From contig JBIOTM010000084.1 of the NCBI GenBank assembly GCA_044865955.1, positions 1 through 55,165 of the forward strand: a stretch of DNA of 55,165 nucleotides. Direction: 5' to 3'. The notes beneath the pieces are model-generated. The model did no database searches and was not told where the DNA came from. It was given only the letters and a program-made list of their open reading frames with translations. Below are positions 11,453 through 38,594 of this stretch, piece after piece; the first letter of the stretch is position 1; every line of letters begins with the position of its first letter. Source of the DNA: Actinomycetota bacterium. GTDB lineage: Bacteria; Actinomycetota; UBA4738; HRBIN12. The position numbers were made by a program, and so were the translations under genes.

Positions 11453-11920
11453 ATGGCAGATGCGACGATCGCCGCTGCCCGCGACCTGTTCGACCAGGCG
11501 TTCCGAGGGATGCGCGGAGCGATCGTGGGACTCCCGGCCGAAGGCCTCGCGTGGCGCCCGCCCGCGAACGACAGCAACCCGATCACCGTCCTCGCCACGC
11601 ATGCGATGCACAGCACCCGCTGGTGGCTGACGATCGCGCGCGGCGCGCCGCTCCCGCACCGGGACCGACCGTCGGAGTTCGTCGCCGGATCCGGGAGCGC
11701 CCAGGAGCTGCTGTCGTTCGTGGACTCGATGGCGGCCGACTGCCACGCGAGGCTCGACGCCGACGAGCCCTTCGACCCCGCCGCGATGCGCGACGTCCCC
11801 GATGACGAGCCGGTCTCGTCCACCTGGGCCCTCCTGCACGCCCTGGAGCACCTGAGCGAGCATTCGGCCGTCGCGCAGCTCACGCGCCAGCTCTGGGATC
11901 GGCGGCGGGAGGGCTCCTGA
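11453..11920 (+). CDS. DinB/DUF664 family protein
   Basis: LAWRP..SNPITVLATH...LLHALEHLSEH histidine pattern. Confidence 0.75.
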   Translation: MADATIAAARDLFDQAFRGMRGAIVGLPAEGLAWRPPANDSNPITVLATHAMHSTRWWLTIARGAPLPHRDRPSEFVAGSGSAQELLSFVDSMAADCHARLDADEPFDPAAMRDVPDDEPVSSTWALLHALEHLSEHSAVAQLTRQLWDRRREGS

Positions 11921-14305: not shown

Positions 14306-17011
14306 GTGCCCTTCATCGAGAAGTTCAGCAACATCGGCGAAGGCCGGCGCCGCAAGGAGCTCGAGCACGTCGCCAAGCTCGTCAACACGTGGGAGCCAGA
14401 GACCGAGGAGCTCTCCGACGAGCAGCTGGGCCACCGGACGGTCGAGTTCCGGCAGCGCCTCGGGAACGGCGAGCCCCTCGACGACCTGCTGCCCGAGGCG
14501 TTCGCGACCGTCCGCGAGGCCGCCCGCCGCACGATCGGTCAGCGCCACTTCGACGTCCAGCTGATGGGCGGCGCCGCCCTGCACCGCGGGAGCATCGCCG
14601 AGATGCGGACCGGCGAAGGCAAGACCCTCGTCTCGACGCTCCCTGGCTACCTGAACGCCCTCGAGGGCCACGGCGTGCACATCGTCACGGTGAACGACTA
14701 CCTGGCCAAGCGCGACTCCGAGTGGATGGGCGGCATCTACCGCTTCCTGGGTCTCCACGTCGGGCTGATCCAGGCGCAGATGAGTCCAGAACAGCGCCGG
14801 CCCGCCTACGAGGCGGACATCACGTACGGCACCAACAACGAGTTCGGGTTCGACTACCTCCGCGACAACATGTCCATGCGCCTCGAGCACACGGTCCAAC
14901 GCGGCCACCACTTCGCGATCGTGGACGAGGTCGACTCGATCCTGATCGACGAAGCGCGCACCCCGCTGATCATCAGCGGCATGGTGCAGGACTCGGCCAA
15001 GTGGTACCAGACGTTCGCGCGGATCGCGCCCCAGCTTCGTGCCGACGACGACTACGAGGTGGAGGAGGCGAAGTACCAGGTCGCGGTCACGGAGCACGGC
15101 GTCGCCCGGGTCGAGGCGCTGCTGAACATCGACAACCTCTACGACCACTCGAACACGATGCTCGTCCACCACCTGCACAACGCGCTGCGCGCCAAGGAGC
15201 TCTACAAGCGCGACGTCCAGTACGTGGTCCAGAACGGCGAGGTGAAGATCGTCGACGAGTTCACCGGCCGGGTCCTCGAGGGCCGGCGGTACTCGGAGGG
15301 GCTCCATCAGGCGATCGAGGCGAAGGAGGGCGTGCGGATCAAGGAGGAGAACCAGACCCTCGCCACGATCACGATCCAGAACTACTTCAAGATGTACGAG
15401 AAGCTCGCGGGGATGACGGGGACCGCGAAGACGCAGCTCACCGAGTTCGAGGAGACCTACACGCTCGGCGTCACCGAGATCCCCACGAACCAGCCGATGA
15501 TCCGCCAGGACGACCAGGACCTGATCTTCAAGACCGAGGACGCGAAATGGAACGCGCTCATCGAGGACATCATCGAGCGGCACGAGGTGGGCCAGCCGAT
15601 CCTCGTGGGCACCGTGTCGATCGAGAAGTCCGAGAAGCTCTCGTCGATGCTGGACCGCCGCGGCGTCAAGCACAACGTCCTGAACGCCAAGAACCACGAG
15701 AAGGAGGCGATGATCGTCGCGCAGGCCGGCCGGAGGGGCGCGGTCACGGTCGCGACGAACATGGCTGGCCGCGGCGTCGACATCCTCCTCGGAGGCAACC
15801 CCGAGTACCTCGCCCGCCAGGAGATGGCCGCGCGGGACTTCGACAACGACCGGTACCTCCTGTTCGAGCTGGACGAGGACGAGCGGGCCGCCTACGAAAC
15901 CGAGTACGAGCCGATCTTCGCGAAGTTCAAGGCGCAGACCGACGCCGAGCACGAGGAGGTCGTCGAGCTCGGCGGCCTGTACGTGCTGGGGACCGAGCGC
16001 CACGAGTCCCGCCGGATCGACAACCAGCTCCGCGGACGGTCCGGCCGTCAGGGCGATCCGGGCGCGTCGCTCTTCTACCTGTCGCTCCAGGACGACCTGA
16101 TGCGGATGTTCGCCTCCGACCGGGTCGCGTCGATCATGGAGCGGTTCAAGTGGCCTGAGGACGAGCCGATCGAGGCGAAGATGGTGACACGGGCCGTCCA
16201 GAACGCACAGGGGCAGATCGAGGAGCTCAACTACGAGCGCCGCAAGAACGTCCTCAAGTACGACGAGGTGATGAACGGCCAGCGGACCGTGATCTACGGG
16301 GAGCGCCGGAAGATCCTCGAGGGCGGGGACCTGAAGGACGAAGCGCTCGGGTTCGTCCGGGAGGTCGTCGAGGCGACGGTCGCGACGTACTGCCCCCCGG
16401 ACGTGTTCGCCGAGGAGTGGGACCGGGACGGGCTCATGACCGCGCTCTCCGAGGTCTACCCGGTCTCGCTCACGGCACAGCAGGTCGCCGAGATGGGGGA
16501 TCCCGAGGCGCTGCAGGCAGCCTTCGTCGAGGACGCCCTAGCGGCGTACGCGGCGAAGGAGGAAGCGGTCGGCGAGCAGGTGATGCGCGAGCTCGAGCGC
16601 GTCGTGCTCCTGAACATCATCGACACCCGGTGGCGCGAGCACCTGTACGAGATGGACTACCTCCAGGAAGGGATCTACCTCAGGAGCTACGCGCAACAGG
16701 ACCCGCTGACGGAGTACCGCCGCGAGGCCTTCGAGATGTTCGAGGAGCTCACGAGCACGATCCAGAGCGAGTTCGTCCGCTACATCTACCGGGTGGAGCT
16801 GGTCAGGCCCGAGGAGCAGCAGCGGCGGGCGGCCGCTCCGAGGGTCAACCGCGTGCGCGAGAGCCACGGCGACGAGCCGGCCGCGTCGTCGTCGCCGACC
16901 GCGCAGGAGGCGAATCCGAACCAGGTCATCAGCGACAAGGTGCCGCGGAACGCCCCCTGTCCGTGCGGCAGCGGGCGGAAGTACAAGAAGTGCCACGGGG
17001 CCGTGGCCTAG
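14306..17011 (+). CDS. secA: Preprotein translocase subunit SecA
   Basis: [41 protein letters not shown] tail [13 protein letters not shown]. -10 TAGAAT at 14271. Confidence 0.99.
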
Positions 17012-17104: not shown

Positions 17105-17554
17105 TCATCGGCACTGCGGGCAGGGCTCGCCGTTGACCATGATCGGCTTGTGACCTCCGACCTTCGGCCTGAACGTTCCATCCGTCCCGTAGGCTGCGGG
17201 GTTCTCGAGACCGCTGATGGACGTGACGCCAGCCGTCACCGCTCCGACGGTCACCTCGTGGGCCCGTCCCGAAGCGTGGTAGGCGAACGCCCCTTGCTCG
17301 CGGATCGCGGCGCTCGAGTTCTCCAGGACCGCCGGGTCGAAGAGCACGCGGCCTCCCTGCTCGCGGACCGCGGCGCTCGAGTTGGCGAGGCGCTCGTCGT
17401 CGGTGACCGAGGTGACGATCCCGTCCGGACGAGCGTCGGTGAACACCGTCAGCCCGATGGCAGCCGCGATCGCGGCGGCCAGCAGGGCGGCGATGGTCCA
17501 CATCGGCAGCTGGACGGCCCCTCTCCTCTCGAGGGTTCCTCCCTGGGCGCTCAT
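17105..17554 (-). CDS. Small membrane-anchored protein with C-terminal CxxC (paralog A)
   Basis: Strong RBS (GGAAGGAGGGAG), one TM helix, internal repeat LxNSSAAxREQG twice, ends HKPIMVNGEPCPQCR. Confidence 0.8.
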   Translation of the reverse strand: MSAQGGTLERRGAVQLPMWTIAALLAAAIAAAIGLTVFTDARPDGIVTSVTDDERLANSSAAVREQGGRVLFDPAVLENSSAAIREQGAFAYHASGRAHEVTVGAVTAGVTSISGLENPAAYGTDGTFRPKVGGHKPIMVNGEPCPQCR

Positions 17555-17603
17555 GGCTCCCTCCTTCCTCTCCGGTCCCCCTCAGGACCTGACTGATGGG
17601 CTG

Positions 17604-17669
17604 ACCCTAGGGAGGGCGCGCTCGCCGGTCGGTGCCGAGCCGTACGGATCGGGGGTGATGTTGGCCACC
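17604..17669 (-). promoter_or_regulatory. Promoter of paralog A: -10 box plus two CRP-like boxes
   Basis: -10 TAGGGT (17604-17609); GGTGC-N6-GTACG (17631-17646); GGTGA-N6-CCACC (17654-17669). Confidence 0.6.
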
Positions 17670-17748
17670 TCGATCCGGTGACGGGTGGGGGGTCGATGCA
17701 GGCGATGACTCAGGGTGGGCCGGGGGGATGATGCGCGGTGCGGACGGC

Positions 17749-17778
17749 GAAGAGGCCGGCGCATCCGCGCCGGCCCCT
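17749..17778 (-). terminator. GC hairpin downstream of paralog B
   Basis: GGCCGGCGC-ATCC-GCGCCGGCC followed by TCTTC on the minus strand; homologous to the 17045 hairpin. Confidence 0.55.
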
Positions 17779-17798
17779 GACCCCTCGCGGGGAGAGGT

Positions 17799-18245
17799 CT
17801 ACCTGCACTGCGGGCAGGGCTCGCCGTTCACCACGATCGCCCGGTGCGGGCCTGCGGCGGGAGCGTCGCCGGCGGTCGGATACGCTCCGGCGTTCTCGAG
17901 TCCGCTGATCAACGTGGTCCCGGTCGTCACCGCACCGACGATCACCTCGTGAGCCCGCCCAGAGGTGTGGTAGGCGAGCGCCCCCTGCTCGCGGATCGCG
18001 GCGCTCGAGTTCTCCAGGACCGCCGGGTCGAAGAGCACGCGGCCTCCCTGCTCGCGGATGGCGGCGCTCGAGTTGGCGAGGCGCTCGTCGTTGGTGACCG
18101 AGGTGACGAGCCCGTCCTGGCGAGCATCGGTGAACACCGTCATCCCGATGGCGGTGGCGATCGCGGCGACCAACAGGACCGCGACGGGCCACATCGGCAG
18201 GCGGATGGCCCCTCTCCTCTCGAGGATCCCTCCCTGGGCGCTCAT
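17799..18245 (-). CDS. Small membrane-anchored protein with C-terminal CxxC (paralog B)
   Basis: Tandem duplicate of 17105..17554 with the same RBS/leader; ends HRAIVVNGEPCPQCR. Confidence 0.8.
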   Translation of the reverse strand: MSAQGGILERRGAIRLPMWPVAVLLVAAIATAIGMTVFTDARQDGLVTSVTNDERLANSSAAIREQGGRVLFDPAVLENSSAAIREQGALAYHTSGRAHEVIVGAVTTGTTLISGLENAGAYPTAGDAPAAGPHRAIVVNGEPCPQCR

Positions 18246-18293
18246 GGCTCCCTCCTTCCTCTCCGGTCCCCATGGGACCTGATCGATGGAGCG

Positions 18294-18359
18294 AACCTAG
18301 GGAGCGGGCGACCCGAAGTCGGTGCCTGTGGGCACCCATCGTCGGTGATGCCCATCACA
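18294..18359 (-). promoter_or_regulatory. Promoter of paralog B: -10 box plus two CRP-like boxes
   Basis: -10 TAGGTT (18294-18299); GGTGC-N6-GCACC (18321-18336); GGTGA-N6-TCACA (18344-18359). Confidence 0.65.
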
Positions 18360-18381
18360 GGAGCGGCGTCGCTTCTTCCTG

Positions 18382-19936
18382 TTGTACGTCGAACAGGGAT
18401 GCCGCGATACATCGGAGCGATCGACCGGACCCGCCCGAGACCATCCGGTCTCCGCCGACGACGGGACGACCTACGCCACCGACGAGCTGGGGAACCTCAC
18501 CGGGATCGACGCACCCGGTACCAGTTCGGACTGGACCTTCGCCTACGACGCGTGGTCACAGCTGAAGACGGCGACCCAGGGCTCCACGGTCATCAACTAC
18601 GCGCTGGATGCCTTGGGCCGGCTCCTCACGCGGACGAACGGCTCCGCGAGCACCTCGTACCTCTACCGGGGGACTTCCGAAGACATCTCGAAGGCCACGC
18701 CGTCGACGGGATCGGCCACGACCTACACCTATTCGGCCGGCGGACCCCTCGCTCAGAAGATCGGCACCACGAAACGACTGTACCTGCGCGACGTCCACGG
18801 CGACGTCGTCGGCCTCACCGACACGGCCGGCGTGGCCAAAGGCACCAGGACCTTCGATCCCTACGGCCGACAGCGGACCTCCACCGGAGAGACATCGGTC
18901 CTGGGGTTCCAGGGCGCCCCCACGGATACCAACACGGGCCTCGTCGACATGGTCACCCGTCACTACCTGCCGACGCTCGGCCGGTTCATCACCGCCGATC
19001 AGGTGTTCGGGAACCTGATGCTCCCGATCTCGCTGAACCGCTTCTCCTACGCGGTCGGGAACCCCGTCTCCTACACCGACCCCGACGGGATGTGCGCGGA
19101 CCCGTCCTTCTGCCCCGCCCCGATCACGTCTTCACGCTCCTCGGCGGAGAGGTGGTACGACACGGGATCGGAGCTCAACGAGCCCTCCTACGGGGAGTCC
19201 TCCGGCTACCACTCCTACGTCACCAAGCTGTACGTCGAACATCCCGACATCCGACCCCCGACCTTCCGGCTCCAGTTCTTCAACCGGCTCCCGAACCTCC
19301 TAAGGGATAGGGGTCTTCTGGACACGGACTACGCCACCTTCGGCTGCTCGGGGACGAAGGGCTTCTCCTCCTGCGGCGTCCACGTCGAGGACGAGGGCGG
19401 CGGCTTCATGGGGTTCCTCCACAACACCCTGGACCTCATCGGGTTCATCCCCGTGGTCGGGGAGCCTGCCGATGGTGCGAACGCGGTCCTGTACGCGATC
19501 GAAGGGGACCACCTCAACGCGCTGATCTACGCCGGCGCCGTGCTCATCCCGACAAGCGGACGAGCCCTGCGCGCGGGTCGAGAGATCGTTGAGGAAGGTG
19601 TCGAGGTCGTAGCCAAGAACGCCGACGGTCTCCTCACCCGAGCTCGCTACGCGATCGGAGACTTGCGCGATGAGACGGGGATCGTGGGCCGCGGAAGCCG
19701 ACTAGCAAACGCCCAAGCGACAGATATGGCCAACTGGATTGGCTTCCGACCTGCCGGCGGATCTCCGATCCAAGGACAGAGGGTCTTTACGAATGGCAGG
19801 CGTTACATCGTGCAGGACATCACCTCAAACAAGCCAGAAGGGCTCTGGAAGATGGCGAAGACACCCGCAAGATCTGCTCAGCAAGCAGACGAGGATGGGC
19901 ACCTATGACTACATGTTGAACTGGGTGGGGCCTTAG
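18382..19936 (+). pseudogene. Orphan Rhs C-terminal module with Ntox21-like nuclease tip, 5'-truncated and frameshifted
   Basis: YD repeats, Rhs core end NRFSYAVGNPVSYTDPDG, pretoxin helix region LDLIGFIPVVGEPADGANA. Tip GQRVF..G.RYI..D....GLWKMA continues in a shifted frame at ~19864 as QDLLSKQTRMGTYDYMLNWVGP*. Confidence 0.8.
18471..18547 (+). repeat. Rhs-derived direct repeat, copy 1
   Basis: 77 bp with about 15 mismatches (hand count) to 20429..20505; encodes YATDELGNLTGIDAPGTSSDWTFAY. Confidence 0.85.
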
Positions 19937-20418
19937 TGCGGTACCACTGGCGCATCAGCAAGTTCGACCCGTTGAGCGTTACCTCCTCAAAAGAGGAAGA
20001 CGACTGGACCTCGATCTCGGACGTGGGCAAGTCTTTCGGAGGCGTCCCTCTTACGCGGGCCGAGTATGAACGAGTTGAGGAGACATATCTGTCATCCGCG
20101 AGGTCCTTCATGAGAGACTCCGGCGTCAATGAGCTCTCCGTCTCAGACAAGCAGCTATCCTCAATCGCCTCGCCACGAGCCGATGCGGTCACTGAGGGTA
20201 GCGTCTTGGACGCGGAGGCCGCCCTTGAGGTCGTCAGACTCGAGCTCCGTGAGGAGCTGGCTTGCCGACTTGACGGCGATGGTTTTCACTTGGCCATAGG
20301 ATTTGACTACTACATGTTTGTCGGCAGCGATTTCCCGTGCCGGAACGCCGTCGAATGGACGACCAGCTCCGGCCTGTTCGTTGAGCCCAACATCATTTCG
20401 CCCTATCTGTCGGGATAA
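19936..20418 (+). CDS. Putative immunity protein of the Rhs toxin
   Basis: Start overlaps the restored toxin stop (TAGTG). Lower GC, acidic 160-aa protein, motifs RISKFDP, DWTSISDVG, GFDYYMFVG. Confidence 0.7.
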   Translation: MRYHWRISKFDPLSVTSSKEEDDWTSISDVGKSFGGVPLTRAEYERVEETYLSSARSFMRDSGVNELSVSDKQLSSIASPRADAVTEGSVLDAEAALEVVRLELREELACRLDGDGFHLAIGFDYYMFVGSDFPCRNAVEWTTSSGLFVEPNIISPYLSG

Positions 20419-20428
20419 CGTCCTCGAA

Positions 20429-20505
20429 CTACTCCACTGACGAGCTCGGGAACCTCACCGAGATCGACGCGCCCAGGACGGCCTCGGAGTGGTCGTTCGG
20501 CTACG
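20429..20505 (+). repeat. Rhs-derived direct repeat, copy 2 (stub of a second module)
   Basis: Encodes YSTDELGNLTEIDAPRTASEWSFGY; begins 10 bp after the immunity stop. Confidence 0.85.
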
Positions 20506-20533
20506 CCCCGCTCCGGACGGCTCACAGGGTCAC

Positions 20534-20774
20534 TGAGCTTGCCCCTAAGGCCGGACGCACAACGGTGGGACTCGCTGGTCCAGGGGATGAGGCGTTTCCC
20601 CCAGTGCCTAGATCACGTCCGTCCTACCTGGTGGGGTTGGGGTTCAAAGCTGAGGCGGTCCGGCTACCGCGAGTCGCGCCGCAGCCCGAAAGGCGATGGC
20701 CGAAGACCTGTGCGTTTCGCTCGAGTCTCGGCGCACGTGGGTCAACTAAACGCGCGATTGACGCCGGCGAGTGA
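20534..20774 (+). mobile_element. Decayed IS3-family element: left end plus frameshifted orfA fragment
   Basis: IRL-like TGAGCTTGCCCCTAAGGCCGGACGC. Stitching frames from GTG 20604 gives PRSRPSY..FKAEAVRL/RESRRSPK/MAEDLCVSLESRRTWVN*/IDAGE, an IS3 OrfA HTH pattern. Confidence 0.75.
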
Positions 20775-20775
20775 T

Positions 20776-20818
20776 GAAAGGGGGCGGCCGGCCGGGCCTT
20801 CCGGGCCGGCCGGCCGCC
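20776..20818 (-). terminator. GC hairpin downstream of paralog C
   Basis: 13-bp stem GGCGGCCGGCCGG/CCGGCCGGCCGCC followed by CCCTTTC on the minus strand. Confidence 0.6.
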
Positions 20819-20849
20819 GATGAGAGGGGGGTACCTCTCGTCTCTCAGG

Positions 20850-21074
20850 TCACGGCCGGCACTGCCCGCAGACCTGTCCGTCCACGACCACCTGATCGTG
20901 CGGGGCCGCCAACGCGTGGGCCGGCTGCTTGACCGGCGGGGTCGCGTCGGAGCCCTCGAACGCGGGCCAGAAGGCGAGCGCGATCACCGTGATCATCACG
21001 ATCATCAGCAGGCTCGCGACCCAGGTCGCGTTCCACCGCACTCCCGGGCGAAGGGTCTCCGCGTTCGAGCTCAC
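20850..21074 (-). CDS. Small membrane-anchored protein with C-terminal CxxC (short paralog C, 74 aa)
   Basis: RBS GAGGGAGAGG before GTG 21074; one TM helix; ends HDQVVVDGQVCGQCRP. Confidence 0.75.
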   Translation of the reverse strand: MSSNAETLRPGVRWNATWVASLLMIVMITVIALAFWPAFEGSDATPPVKQPAHALAAPHDQVVVDGQVCGQCRP

Positions 21075-21107
21075 GATGGGCCTCTCCCTCGAACCTGATC
21101 TTCCGGG

Positions 21108-21173
21108 AGCGTAGGCAGCTCCCCCCGCCGCGGCGGTGGCATCGAGCACGTTGTTCGTGTGACCTTGGTCACA
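21108..21173 (-). promoter_or_regulatory. Promoter of paralog C: -10 box plus two CRP-like boxes, one a perfect consensus
   Basis: -10 TACGCT (21108-21113); GGTGG-N6-GCACG (21135-21150); TGTGA-CCTTGG-TCACA (21158-21173). Confidence 0.7.
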
Positions 21174-21214: not shown

Positions 21215-22328
21215 ATGACCGACCACACCGAACGCCTCCGCACGCTCCGCGGCCGGATCCTGGCCGCGAAGGAGTTCCTTTGACGTCGACGGAAAGCGCA
21301 CGAGGCTGACCGAGGTCGAACGGGAAGCGTCGGACCCCTCGATCTGGGACGACCCGTCCCGCGGGCAGGAGCTCACTCAGCGCCTCGCTCGCCTCAGGGA
21401 CGAGATCGATCGCTACGACCGGCTCGAGCGCGCGCTCGGCGACCTGCAGGCGACCGACGAGCTCCTGGAGGACGAGGCCGACCCCGAGCTGACGCGGGAG
21501 CTCGAGGCCGGCCTGGAGCGGCTCGAGCAGGAGCTCGAACGGGTCGAGCTCGGCGCGCTCCTGTCCGGCCCGTACGACGGGCACGACGCGATCGCCACGG
21601 TCCAGGCGGGCGCCGGCGGGACCGAGTCCCAGGACTGGGCCGACATGCTCCTGCGGATGTACGCGAGGTGGGCCGAGCGCGAGGGGTTCCGGATGGAGGT
21701 GGACGAAGCCCATCCCGGCGAGGAGGCGGGGATCAAGTCGGCGACGTTCATGGTGCACGGTCCGAACGCCTACGGGCTCCTCTCGGCGGAGCGGGGGGTC
21801 CACCGGCTCGTGCGCATCAGCCCCTTCGACGCGCAGAAGCGCCGGCACACCTCGTTCGCGGCGCTGGACGTGATCCCGCTCCTCGAGCGATCCGAGGAGG
21901 AGGAGGTGGAGATCCCCGACGACGATCTGCGGGTCGACGTCTTCCGCTCCTCCGGGCCCGGGGGCCAATCGGTGAACACGACGGATTCCGCCGTCCGGAT
22001 CACCCACCTGCCGTCGGGCATCGTCGTCGCCTGTCAGAACGAGCGCTCGCAGCTGCAGAACCGAGCCGTCGCGATGCGGATCCTGAAGGCGCGGCTGGCC
22101 GAGCTCGAACGCAGGAGGCGCGACGAAGCGATGGACGAGCTGCGAGGGGAACGGAAGGCCGTCGACTTCGGCTCACAGATCCGCTCGTACGTGCTGGCGC
22201 CCTACCAGATGGTGAAGGACCACCGGACCGAGGTCGAGGTGGGGGACCCGTCGCGGGTCCTCGACGGGGACATCGACCGGTTCATCGAGGCCGAGCTCAG
22301 GCGGCGGGCGGCGCCGACCGCCGCCTGA
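21215..22328 (+). CDS. prfB: Peptide chain release factor 2 (programmed +1 frameshift)
   Basis: ORF0 [22 protein letters not shown] followed by a +1 frame containing SPF and GGQ motifs. Confidence 0.97.
21269..21284 (+). other. prfB +1 frameshift cassette
   Basis: AAGGAG-TTC-CTT-TGA-C: internal SD, 3-nt spacer, CUU UGA C. Confidence 0.93.
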
Positions 22329-37149: not shown

Positions 37150-38398
37150 CCTTGATGCCGAACGCAAGGGAAACGTCGTGATGGCCGATCGGGCAGGGGC
37201 CAGATCTGGATCCTCCTCGATCGTCCGACGATCGGACCAGCCCGCCTCGACGGCCCGGTCCAACCACTCGAGCGCTCGGCCCGCGTGGCCGCTGCGGCTG
37301 AGGCTGCACGCGACGTTGTAGGCCACCTCGGCACGAGGACCGACGTCGATCTCGAACAGGTGTCGACCGACGCCCGCCGAGTCGTCGAAGAACCCTCCCG
37401 CATGGAGCTGGTACTGCAACCGCAGCGCGACATCGACCGCTGCCTCCTGCCTCGATGCGAGCACCTGATGCGTGACCGCTCCCACCGCTCCGGCCCTGGC
37501 CAGCTCCCGGACCACGGTCGAGCCGGTGGACGTCGTGGGATGTTCGAGCATCCATCCAGAGATCGCCCGCGCTCCCTCGTCCACGGAGCCCTCGATCAGG
37601 CTCAGACATCCGTCAAGGAGGACCTTGTTCACCGACGTCGAAAGGCCCCGGACGATGTCGCTGGCCTCCCCCGGATGTTCGTCGGCCAGGAGCGCCCACG
37701 CCAGGGACTCGGATGCCTGGTCGCGCACGGCCGAGGTGCGCGACGTTCGCCCCCACGAAGTACAGGGCGAACGCTCCGGCGTAGATCAGTCCGCGCGCGA
37801 AGGCGAGGGCCGCTCCGGCTGCGGCGGTCACGATCGCGATCATCAAGGCGATCCGCTCCCCGCCCTGGGGCCGGACGTACACCAGGAGACGCCGGGCCAC
37901 GAGCCCTCCGTCGAGAGGGAGGACGGGGAGGAGGTTCAGGAGCGCCCACCCCACGCTCACCCACACGAGATCGGACAGCACGATCCACCAACGGATGCTT
38001 CCGAGATCGGTCGGTTCGATCGAGGAGCGCAGCGCCATGGCCGGGAGCCCGAGCAGGGTCAGCTGGGTGAAGGACCCCGCGAGGGTCGAGATGACGTCCT
38101 TGGCGAGGGGCAGCGGCTTCGTGGGATAGGTCGCGCCGCCGAACGCGTGCAGCGTGATCCGCGGTGTGTCGCCGAACGCGCGCAAGGTCACCGCATGGCC
38201 CATCTCGTGGACGAGGATGGACACGAAGACGACCGCGATCCAGCCGAGGAGGAGCTCGCCGGGTCGGCCTTGACCGAGGATCGCGGCAACGAAGAAGAAC
38301 GTGGCCTCGATCCGCACGGGGAACCCCGCGAGGCGGAGGGTGACGCCCGGGCACGACCCTTCGGTTCGCCGTTCGTGACATTTCGATCCTCTGTCCAC
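37150..38398 (-). pseudogene. Frameshifted site-2 protease (M50) with C-terminal TPR-like domain
   Basis: HEMGH and NLLPVLPLDGG in 37613..38398. Continues in another frame from ~37728 (AYNVACSLSR...ALEWL.RAVEAG...DPDL). Both ends ill-defined. Confidence 0.65.
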
Positions 38399-38594
38399 GG
38401 GTGTCCTCCGTGGCGCAGATCACCCACGTGACTTCGTGGATGCCGCAGGGTACCGAAGAGGTCGAGCCCGCAGATCGCCCGATGACCCTTCGCTACCGTT
38501 CGTCCGATGACCGCGAACGAGGCGTTCCGAAGGGTCGTGTTCACAGGGGAGCACACCAGCTCCGTGGGATGTACATGGCACGGCCCGCCGAGAC

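Follow-up and report, generated by a model that had tools for sequence, protein, structure and literature searches.

The closest precedent for the promoters analysed here is that of whiB1 in M. tuberculosis. There, two CRP palindromes abut, a good distal one (CRP1) centred at -58.5 and a poorer proximal one (CRP2) centred at -37.5 over the -35 region, and they are occupied cooperatively, the distal site aiding occupation of the proximal one (PMC2844151). The host of that promoter is an actinobacterium with many cyclases, as is the organism studied here. The class III CRP-dependent promoters of E. coli resemble ours in having, upstream of a site centred near -41.5 (a predicted position in our case) that covers a poor -35 region, another site; they leave room between the dimers for the polymerase alpha C-terminal domain, whereas here the dimers would abut. 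Known CRP and GlxR regulons are large and consist mostly of single sites (ChIP-seq of M. tuberculosis CRP found multiple motif copies at 14 of 191 sites; PMC4117774), in contrast to the phased arrays that we describe.

Paired palindromes before genes A, B and C

Within the window (the whole stretch of 55,165 nucleotides that was analysed), gene A (17105..17554, minus strand) encodes a 149-aa single-pass membrane protein which starts MSAQGG and ends VNGExCxQCR, and for which a family search returned no match. Gene B (17799..18245, minus strand) is its tandem paralogue, with 79% identity; gene C (20850..21074, minus strand) is a distant paralogue of both, and encodes a 74-aa single-pass membrane protein ending VVDGxxCxQC. 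Together with their relatives, these membrane CxQC proteins form an unannotated family of more than 200 members. The plus strand between C and B/A (18382..20520) holds a fragment of an RHS-repeat/Ntox21 toxin, with an ORF downstream of it and a repeated RHS stub. Relatives have C and A side by side, and we take the RHS/Ntox21 segment to lie outside the regulon, inserted between C and B/A.

An earlier, sequence-only reading of this DNA had claimed that two CRP-type boxes start exactly 22 bp (proximal) and 45 bp (distal) from the upstream edge of the -10 hexamer before all three genes, and that C has a perfect TGTGA-N6-TCACA as its distal box; read directly from the sequence, both statements hold. 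In all three promoters 21 nt (N21) separate the end of the proximal box from a TANNNT hexamer, and the distal and proximal centres are 23 bp apart. The promoter of A, on the minus strand like those of B and C, has a strong CRP-type distal box (17654..17669), whose position is kept in 25/25 family promoters; a weak proximal box (17631..17646), which reads GTA-N8-CAC, with GTA where the core has GTG, and whose core is in register in orthologues; and the -10-like hexamer TAGGGT (17604..17609), a TANNNT standing at the same distance in 25/25 promoters. For B, the strong distal box (18344..18359) and the weak proximal box (18321..18336) were located by reading the sequence and scored with the independent matrix described below, and the -10-like hexamer TAGGTT (18294..18299) was located by reading. 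For C, the strong distal box (21158..21173) is conserved in the 21 C promoters; with the weak proximal box (21135..21150) it forms a twin core that 19 of these 21 orthologous promoters retain, and in 15 of the 21 the counterpart of the -10-like hexamer TACGCT (21108..21113) is a TANNNT spaced exactly 21 nt downstream of the proximal box. The twin layout previously described is present in all three promoters but is not the whole of it: A carries a third half-box (17677..17692, minus strand), consisting of the promoter-side half only and lying 23 bp upstream of the distal box in the same register, and its pattern, CAC-N9-GTG, is kept in most of the 25 A-family promoters.

With 21 bp between its end and the -10 hexamer, the proximal box would overlap the -35 region, with its centre at about -41.5 and that of the distal box at about -64.5, if transcription starts 7 nt past the hexamer. 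A -35-like CCGAC, a poor match to the -35 consensus, straddles the end of the proximal box. A promoter of the whiB1 type would have two abutting sites, a strong distal one and a weak proximal one over the -35 region, and this arrangement is present at A, B and C. Compared with whiB1, the spacing differs (23 bp here, 21 bp there), as do the predicted centres (-64.5/-41.5); here a third half-site or up to six phased sites can be added, and one layout is shared by all the conserved targets instead of being peculiar to a single promoter. We also considered a class III arrangement as in E. coli and set it aside, the upstream centre at about -64.5 being off the class I phase and the sites abutting, with centres 23 bp apart.

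How strong the boxes are was assessed with an independent matrix, built from 33 boxes all taken from other genera and scored over 2,686,308 positions of the genome. Scores for the distal boxes are 12.1 (A), 19.0 (B) and 20.8 bits (C), values reached or exceeded at 95, 4 and 3 of these positions, respectively. The proximal boxes are reached or beaten at 11548 (A), 1028 (B) and 3738 (C) positions, and by sequence alone this matrix does not separate them from the genomic background. A second matrix scoring gave, for A/B/C, 15.4/17.9/19.8 bits for the distal boxes and 6.5/9.0/6.6 for the proximal ones. The arrayed 16-bp palindromes have the consensus TGTGAC-N4-GTCACA; the distal boxes are CRP-type inverted repeats (TGTGA-N6-TCACA), and the proximal boxes retain only a GTR-N8-CAC core. 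The claim that both boxes are of CRP type therefore needs dividing: it stands for the distal boxes, each of them among the best 3 to 95 of 2.69 million positions, but the proximal boxes are weak, that of A with its GTA, and they appear convincing only through their fixed position and their conservation.

A genome scan for box, box and TANNNT, which the sequence-only reading had proposed, bears out the architecture: the pattern GTG-N8-CAC-N9-GTR-N8-CAC-N22-TANNNT has four matches in the 2.69-Mb genome, three of which are the A, B and C promoters. Among the 1005 GTG-N8-CAC cores in the genome there are six pairs at 23 bp and two at 24 bp, and 0 to 3 at any other spacing from 1 to 60 bp, where simple arithmetic predicts about 0.4 per spacing; enrichment is confined to 23/24 bp. 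The architecture of the three promoters is far beyond chance, the A and B promoters not being mutually independent since they derive from a tandem duplication (300 nt at 88%). Single-box matrix matches are only about 2-fold more frequent genome-wide than in a Markov simulation, and the majority fall in coding sequence, so that the regulon is defined by phased arrays and not by single sites.

Conservation across relatives bears on whether there is any regulation here at all, as the boxes could be left over from promoter duplication, with further GTG/CAC cores arising by chance in a genome of 70% G+C, or could mark RNA hairpins in a longer leader. The recent tandem duplication of A and B, the paralogy of C and the weakness of the proximal boxes would suit such an explanation. 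In the A/B family, however, both cores and the hexamer are present, with zero indels between them, in 25/25 promoters (from kin, so that the counts are not independent), while the 21-nt filler varies; even the weakness of the proximal box is kept in all 25. The C promoters across the genus, likewise from kin and not independent, retain the twin core in 19/21 and the hexamer at N21 in 15/21. Across 27 genomes of the genus there are 142 occurrences of the twin pattern and 4 of a reversed-pattern control; across 59 other genomes of the order there are 85 and 3 (summed counts). The same phased boxes precede unrelated genes, and in A-family promoters changes in the left half of the distal box are not matched by compensating ones on the right, contrary to what an RNA helix would lead one to expect. 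An absence of regulation is already strongly disfavoured by these data, and we regard it as highly improbable. The expectation that the boxes would be conserved upstream of homologues is borne out, and the paired palindromes are, by this footprinting, real and evolutionarily conserved CRP-type sites, the predicted operators of a small regulon.

Further targets and a candidate regulator

Phased boxes, two to six per array and spaced 23 bp (22 to 24) from centre to centre, also precede three further conserved targets, all unrelated to A, B and C: an ORF beginning MITGDMA, a small basic ORF, and an element after lysS. Promoters of the 56-aa MITGDMA gene, again taken from kin, have the triple core in 16/18, the twin core in 18/18 and a hexamer at N21 in 15/18. 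In this genome the order of proximal box, N21 or N22, and -10-like hexamer is found at A, B and C and at loci on contigs C253, C21, C145, C48 and C92.

The small basic ORF with its array stands directly upstream of a CRP-family gene on contig C21 (G000:C21:5009-5710), with a terminator-like hairpin between the two. This gene encodes a 233-aa protein with cNMP_binding, HTH_Crp_2 and Crp domains, above the cut-offs for PF00027, PF13545 and PF00325; the genome thus encodes a CRP-family factor. Among proteins of solved structure its closest relatives are the CRP of M. tuberculosis (Rv3676; 3d0s with E 2.3e-21, also 3mzh and 3i54) and the GlxR of Corynebacterium glutamicum (4byy, also 3r6s). It aligns with them over residues 13-229 with E about 1e-21 and shares with them the cNMP-binding and HTH domains and the phosphate-binding cassette, whose residues are kept. 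In the alignment to 3d0s the nucleotide pocket keeps G-E-L-S...P-R-T-A-S and the recognition helix (R-E-x-x-x-R) reads S-R-E-N-V-T-R, residues whose roles we assume to be those assigned in E. coli CRP. Its predicted motif is the same palindrome as the M. tuberculosis CRP consensus (PMC4117774). The similarity to Rv3676 is distant, the score of 85 bits falls below the NCBIfam equivalog cut-off of 266, and a second CRP-like gene is present, so that orthology is not established.

In 12/12 loci, 10 of them from other genera, the orthologue of this gene is preceded, at a distance of 290 to 470 bp, by two to six phased boxes. Such linkage could reflect synteny of the small basic ORF instead of autoregulation. 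The likely regulator is in our view the CRP-family gene on C21, outside the window and itself preceded by an array of these boxes. That the three promoters belong to an undescribed regulon of a CRP/FNR-family factor, as had been proposed, gains support from the footprinting, from the other conserved targets and from the arrays that adjoin a CRP-family gene in all 12 loci. The observation that the window itself holds no CRP gene agrees with our domain search. The further, avowedly speculative link to the cyclase-STAND sensors of the window found no specific support, because the genome has 38 cyclase-domain matches in 2.7 Mb, of which the cyclase-AAA-TPR genes of the window account for three.

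The operators could be real and yet be read by another protein, either the second CRP-like protein (C190:5701-6330) or the redox sensor Rex (C217:52603-53286). The former has an HTH_Crp_2 domain and an R-E-x-x-x-R helix (T-R-E-S-V-N-R); the gene beside it we take to encode a metallo-beta-lactamase-type hydrolase, in a neighbourhood that presumably resembles that of M. tuberculosis crp. Rex operators are also of the TGTGA-N6-TCACA type, reading TTGTGAA...TTCACAA with A/T-rich half-site flanks and linkage to respiratory genes. Neither the gene on C190 nor rex has a box of more than 8 bits upstream, and in 12/12 loci it is the C21-type gene that the arrays accompany. The only A/T-rich-centred Rex-like site in this genome (C17:6693) stands alone, without an array, upstream of what, from the translated ORFs, we read as an ATP-synthase (atp) operon. 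We considered whether the arrays fall into the Rex operator class and rejected this: they carry C/G after GTGA, stand in rows and are linked to a CRP-family gene. A reader other than the C21 protein seems to us unlikely.

Proposed modes of action: activation, repression or rows of dimers

We consider it probable that the boxes are operators of a cyclic-nucleotide-receptor (CRP-family) factor, most likely the C21 protein, with activation as the favoured outcome. The sites themselves, with their phasing, conservation and linkage to the regulator gene, are what the sequences show directly; binding, effector, cooperativity, transcription start and sign of regulation are matters that we infer from them. 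The row before A, B and C pairs a strong distal site with a weak, conserved proximal one, and A and its orthologues have an upstream half-site as well. A nucleotide-bound dimer would occupy the strong distal site first; contact between neighbouring dimers would help to load the weak proximal site, and the dimer there could then touch RNA polymerase. In this class II-like mechanism, a rise in cyclic nucleotide would lead to production of the small membrane CxQC proteins.

The same regulator and sites could instead follow the logic of whiB1, the distal site activating at low levels of regulator or nucleotide and filling of the proximal site shutting the promoter, with band-pass behaviour or net repression as the result. 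The anatomy is the same as at whiB1, a strong distal site immediately adjacent to a weak proximal one, and there the proximal site represses, the authors arguing that the alpha C-terminal domain has too little room between the dimers (PMC2844151). Low proximal affinity in 25/25 A-family promoters is expected if weakness matters, and the -35-like CCGAC straddling the proximal-box end fits as well. Against this stand a spacing of 23 bp and not 21, and a proximal centre predicted near -41.5, where class II activators classically bind, and not at -37.5 (the start being placed from the hexamer); moreover, a poor -35-like element fits an activator-dependent promoter. We regard whiB1-like logic as possible but distinctly less probable than activation.

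Two observations count against a simple activation reading in their own right. A centre at -64.5 is off the E. coli class I positions, -61.5, -71.5 and so on (PMC2844151); and the proximal site of the adjacent whiB1 pair is a repressing one.

Returning to CRP-type activation by the C21 protein, we suggest, more tentatively still, that the factor may act not as isolated dimers but as a short protein row on 2.5 to 6 abutting sites per conserved target, phased at about 23.3 bp, half-sites being tolerated. The bends would trace a superhelical nucleoprotein with the last dimer on the -35 region, forming a cooperative, switch-like cAMP sensor. If so, it would control two membrane CxQC proteins, the 56-aa MITGDMA protein, a Lys/Arg-rich protein of 47 aa and, possibly, a small RNA located after lysS; and, within our limited literature searching, both such row-type action of CRP and such a regulon would be undescribed so far. 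The targets are small proteins without assigned function, a further difference from the whiB1 system.

To our knowledge, the strong/weak abutting CRP pair has so far been a single-promoter curiosity. The abutting pairs described here, with up to six sites, would extend the whiB1 layout to a rule for a whole regulon, and point to a cooperative, threshold-like read-out of cyclic nucleotide. The proposed circuit, in an uncultured actinobacterial lineage, comprises an operator motif, a geometry, a candidate regulator and five conserved targets, all testable. By marking them as putatively cAMP-controlled, it offers a first functional handle on the membrane CxQC proteins, an unannotated family of more than 200, and on several tiny basic proteins.

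Gene A also carries a hairpin in its 5′ leader (17574..17589, minus strand), just upstream of the ribosome-binding site; in the alignment of relatives 88.6% of cells pair, with compensatory changes at one pair.

Paired boxes before three small membrane-protein genes

Three minus-strand genes of the window (contig C84 of a 2.69-Mb assembly in 262 contigs, 70% G+C) each encode a small single-pass membrane protein: gene A (17105-17554, 149 aa), gene B (17799-18245, 148 aa, 79% identical to A) and gene C (20850-21074, 74 aa). The group is flanked on one side by secA (14306-17011, plus strand) and on the other by prfB (plus strand, from about 21200), which is divergent from gene C and has, as expected, a programmed +1 frameshift site (CTTTGAC with AGGAG before it, 21270-21284). 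A and B have a tandem duplication in common (300 nt at 88%), gene C matches the C-terminus of B weakly (E 0.1), and a C-terminal V-[ND]-G-x-x-C-x-Q-C motif is common to all three.

The family to which protein A belongs counts at least 215 members, all unannotated, that share an invariant MSAQGG-type start, a single membrane helix, a repeat-rich middle that varies, and a C-terminal CxQC; with protein A as query, members were found in 19/24 same-genus genomes and in 1/16 outside the genus, while gene C is present in 21/27 genus genomes. No Pfam or NCBIfam match passed its cut-off for A, B, C or the 47-aa and 56-aa ORFs described below, and an Atlas search with the target proteins returned unnamed clusters only, at 0.80 or below. 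AlphaFold was confident for the membrane helix of A and the short C-terminal hairpin carrying CxQC, but not for the rest (mean pLDDT 62.8); for C it was confident for the membrane helix only, the C-terminal hairpin being of low confidence (mean pLDDT 66.1). Positive residues precede the helix, which suggests that the C-terminus of these proteins faces outward.

Between C and B (18382-20520) lie an orphan RHS-repeat/Ntox21 C-terminal toxin fragment (18382-19908), a 160-aa ORF (19936-20418) and two copies, 79% identical, of an 86-nt RHS core repeat (18467-18552 and 20425-20510), the second forming an RHS stub. In relatives (e.g. genome G017) C and A are immediate neighbours on one strand; this cassette is therefore an insertion that split an ancestral C-A gene pair.

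Before A, B and C stand two 16-bp CRP-type palindromes, distal and proximal, followed by a -10-like TANNNT hexamer. The positions put forward in a sequence-only reading agreed exactly with the sequence, with offsets of 22 and 45 in 3/3 copies. Its description of both as CRP boxes holds for the distal ones, which match the CRP-type palindrome well, but less so for the proximal ones, which keep just GTR-N8-CAC. A genome scan for the full box-box-hexamer pattern gave four matches, three at A, B and C and one at C253:844-908. Pairing the genome's 1005 GTG-N8-CAC cores gives six pairs at 23 bp and two at 24 bp, against 0 to 3 at any other distance from 1 to 60; one 24-bp pair, at C47:6700, is inside a coding frame and was taken as chance. 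In the 27 genus genomes the twin pattern has 142 occurrences, versus 4 when read backwards, and 59 further genomes of the order have 85 versus 3 (tallies that include genomes G005, G029 and G057, which are flagged as unpublished and on which none of the specific claims depends). The box architecture at A, B and C exceeds chance.

Our first matrix was trained on boxes that it scored, and is not evidence of significance; we replaced it with one from 33 boxes of ten other-genus loci (consensus TGTGAC-N4-GTCACA). This ranks the distal boxes of C, B and A within the best 3, 4 and 95, respectively, of 2,686,308 positions. Single-box matrix matches run at about twice the Markov expectation and are mostly in coding sequence; the regulon is defined by phased rows, not by single sites. 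One single box (38409-38424; 13.2 bits, or 11.5 bits with the independent matrix) is without a phased partner, and about 100 bp downstream of it is an M50-peptidase-like gene (37613-38317, minus strand).

Conserved promoters and further phased loci

Upstream of homologues the boxes are kept: both cores and TANNNT are found in 25/25 A-family promoters (two belonging to this genome, the other 23 to relatives) and the twin core in 19/21 gene C promoters, counts that indicate constraint rather than independent events, because the relatives are kin. The 25 A-family promoters align gap-free from distal box to hexamer, while the 21-nt filler varies, and most contain a third element, a promoter-side half-box (CAC-N9-GTG) exactly 23 bp upstream; TANNNT follows the proximal box of gene C by exactly 21 nt in 15/21. 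Just upstream of the ribosome-binding site, most A-family leaders carry a short hairpin (17574-17589 for A, 18265-18279 for B, and at 23 related loci) of the form GATCCC/GGGATC, with GGTCC/GGACC variants; counted by hand, 88.6% of cells pair, with one compensatory pair; RNAalifold, in place of this local hairpin, proposed that 4 bp form with the ribosome-binding site.

The match on contig C253 consists of three boxes, then N21, then TACCGT, before a 56-aa ORF that starts MITGDMA and is present in 23/27 genus genomes. After five had been dropped (start-motif search or contig end), 18 of its promoters were read: the twin core is present in 18/18, the triple core in 16/18 and the hexamer at N21 in 15/18. 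Three boxes, then N22 and TACGTT, also stand after lysS (G000:C145:3898-4117, L021; G000 being this genome), on a contig that terminates in a poly-G run. The element that they precede, of roughly 100 nt, is conserved at nucleotide level and has a terminator hairpin at its end; it matches in 23/27 genus genomes and is kept in 19 aligned loci (L122-L140). Since its reading frame is not preserved, the element might be either a small RNA or a tiny, MARKR-like basic ORF; in two genomes a longer small basic ORF has this element as its 3' end. Searched against Rfam, neither this element nor the arrays had a family, the sole match being a terminator-like hairpin.

Contig C21 carries a row of five boxes at 23/24 bp before a 47-aa Lys/Arg-rich ORF. 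Weaker candidates are a twin at 24 bp, then N22 and TAGGTT, upstream of a two-domain rhodanese gene (G000:C48:1379-1418), and a single strong box, then N21 and TACGCT, before a 92-aa membrane protein with ARIDG repeats (G000:C92:900-915).

A candidate regulator

The next gene on C21 after the 47-aa ORF encodes a 233-aa protein (G000:C21:5009-5710) in which cNMP_binding, HTH_Crp_2 and Crp domains were recognised. Among solved structures it comes closest to M. tuberculosis CRP (3d0s, E 2.3e-21) and to GlxR of C. glutamicum; in that alignment its nucleotide pocket retains G-E-L-S...P-R-T-A-S, and its recognition helix S-R-E-N-V-T-R. By E. coli CRP, we take these to be the cAMP-binding and GTG-reading residues. 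Matches (E up to 1e-20) were found in 50/61 sampled genomes of the order, about 45 of the best matches having 48 to 65% identity outside the genus, and the one same-genus genome sampled 86%.

At all 12 regulator loci read (one in this genome, one in a same-genus genome and ten in other genera), between 2 and 6 boxes, spaced 22 to 24 bp apart, form a row 290 to 470 bp upstream of the regulator gene, and in 10/12 a small basic ORF with a MAEKK-like start follows the row. The independent matrix was built from the boxes of the ten other-genus loci among these, and its ranking of the window's distal boxes is the classical comparative-genomics argument which, though not proof, would assign the box motif to the C21-type factor. 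Read in order, the conserved cassette (G000:C21:5009-8648, L020) has an M50-type membrane peptidase bearing two cNMP-binding domains, then a 70-aa Cys-rich protein, the box array, the 47-aa ORF and the CRP-family gene. A terminator-like hairpin follows the 47-aa ORF, and so the array might serve only the small ORF; the regulator gene itself appears to be leaderless, with TAGGCT 6 nt ahead of its ATG. We considered and dropped an identity of the small basic ORF with CrsL, a 5.7-kDa actinobacterial protein, the two being set apart solely by the published description of CrsL, as linked to otsA and with a different conserved region (PMC12709188).

A second CRP-like protein, encoded on contig C190, and Rex remain candidates for reading the boxes instead: the C190 gene likewise encodes an R-E-x-x-x-R helix, and a rex gene is present in the genome. 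Neither gene has boxes nearby, and the sole Rex-like, A/T-centred site stands alone upstream of a putative ATP-synthase (atp) operon (read from translated ORFs). This site, the palindrome TGTGAA-N4-TTCACA at G000:C17:6693-6708, resembles a Rex operator and is distinct from the G/C-flanked arrays.

The proposal of an undescribed CRP/FNR-family regulon is supported by conservation, genome-wide statistics and regulator linkage. Such a predicted CRP-family regulon is of a known kind; what sets it apart is that its multi-site architecture is unusual and consistently phased, and that its small targets are novel. A limited literature search found no description of phased or adjacent CRP arrays of this type.

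Predicted input and mode of action

Cyclic-nucleotide input to this regulon is plausible. The three cyclase-AAA-TPR genes of the window are real, and the 2.7-Mb genome has 38 class III cyclase-domain and 13 cNMP-binding-domain matches, many of the cyclases being fused to AAA_16 + TPR (STAND-like) modules and N-terminal zinc ribbons. The suggestion that the regulon is the output of the window's own cyclases is unsupported as a specific tie, given these 38 matches.

The strong distal and conserved weak proximal sites abut, and the weak one overlaps the predicted -35 region, where the -35 element is poor. A nucleotide-bound dimer might occupy the strong site and aid loading of its neighbour, and the proximal dimer would then touch RNA polymerase. 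Two features lead us to favour activation: the predicted proximal centre coincides with the canonical class II position, -41.5, and the promoter's -35 element is poor. Repression, or a band-pass response in the manner of whiB1, is a serious rival. The whiB1 promoter of M. tuberculosis is the closest studied case that we found: the better of its sites, CRP1 at -58.5, activates, whereas the weaker CRP2, at -37.5, represses and is occupied with the help of CRP1, the authors arguing that the alpha C-terminal domain is without room between two abutting dimers (PMC2844151). The spacing is 21 bp at whiB1, in contrast to 23 bp here, where the predicted centres are at -64.5 and -41.5; activation is the outcome that we favour for this arrangement. 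In a ChIP-seq study of M. tuberculosis CRP, an E. coli-like palindrome is reported at 97% of 191 sites, 14 sites having more than one copy (PMC4117774); by that account multi-site rows are therefore the exception there, whereas here they are the rule.
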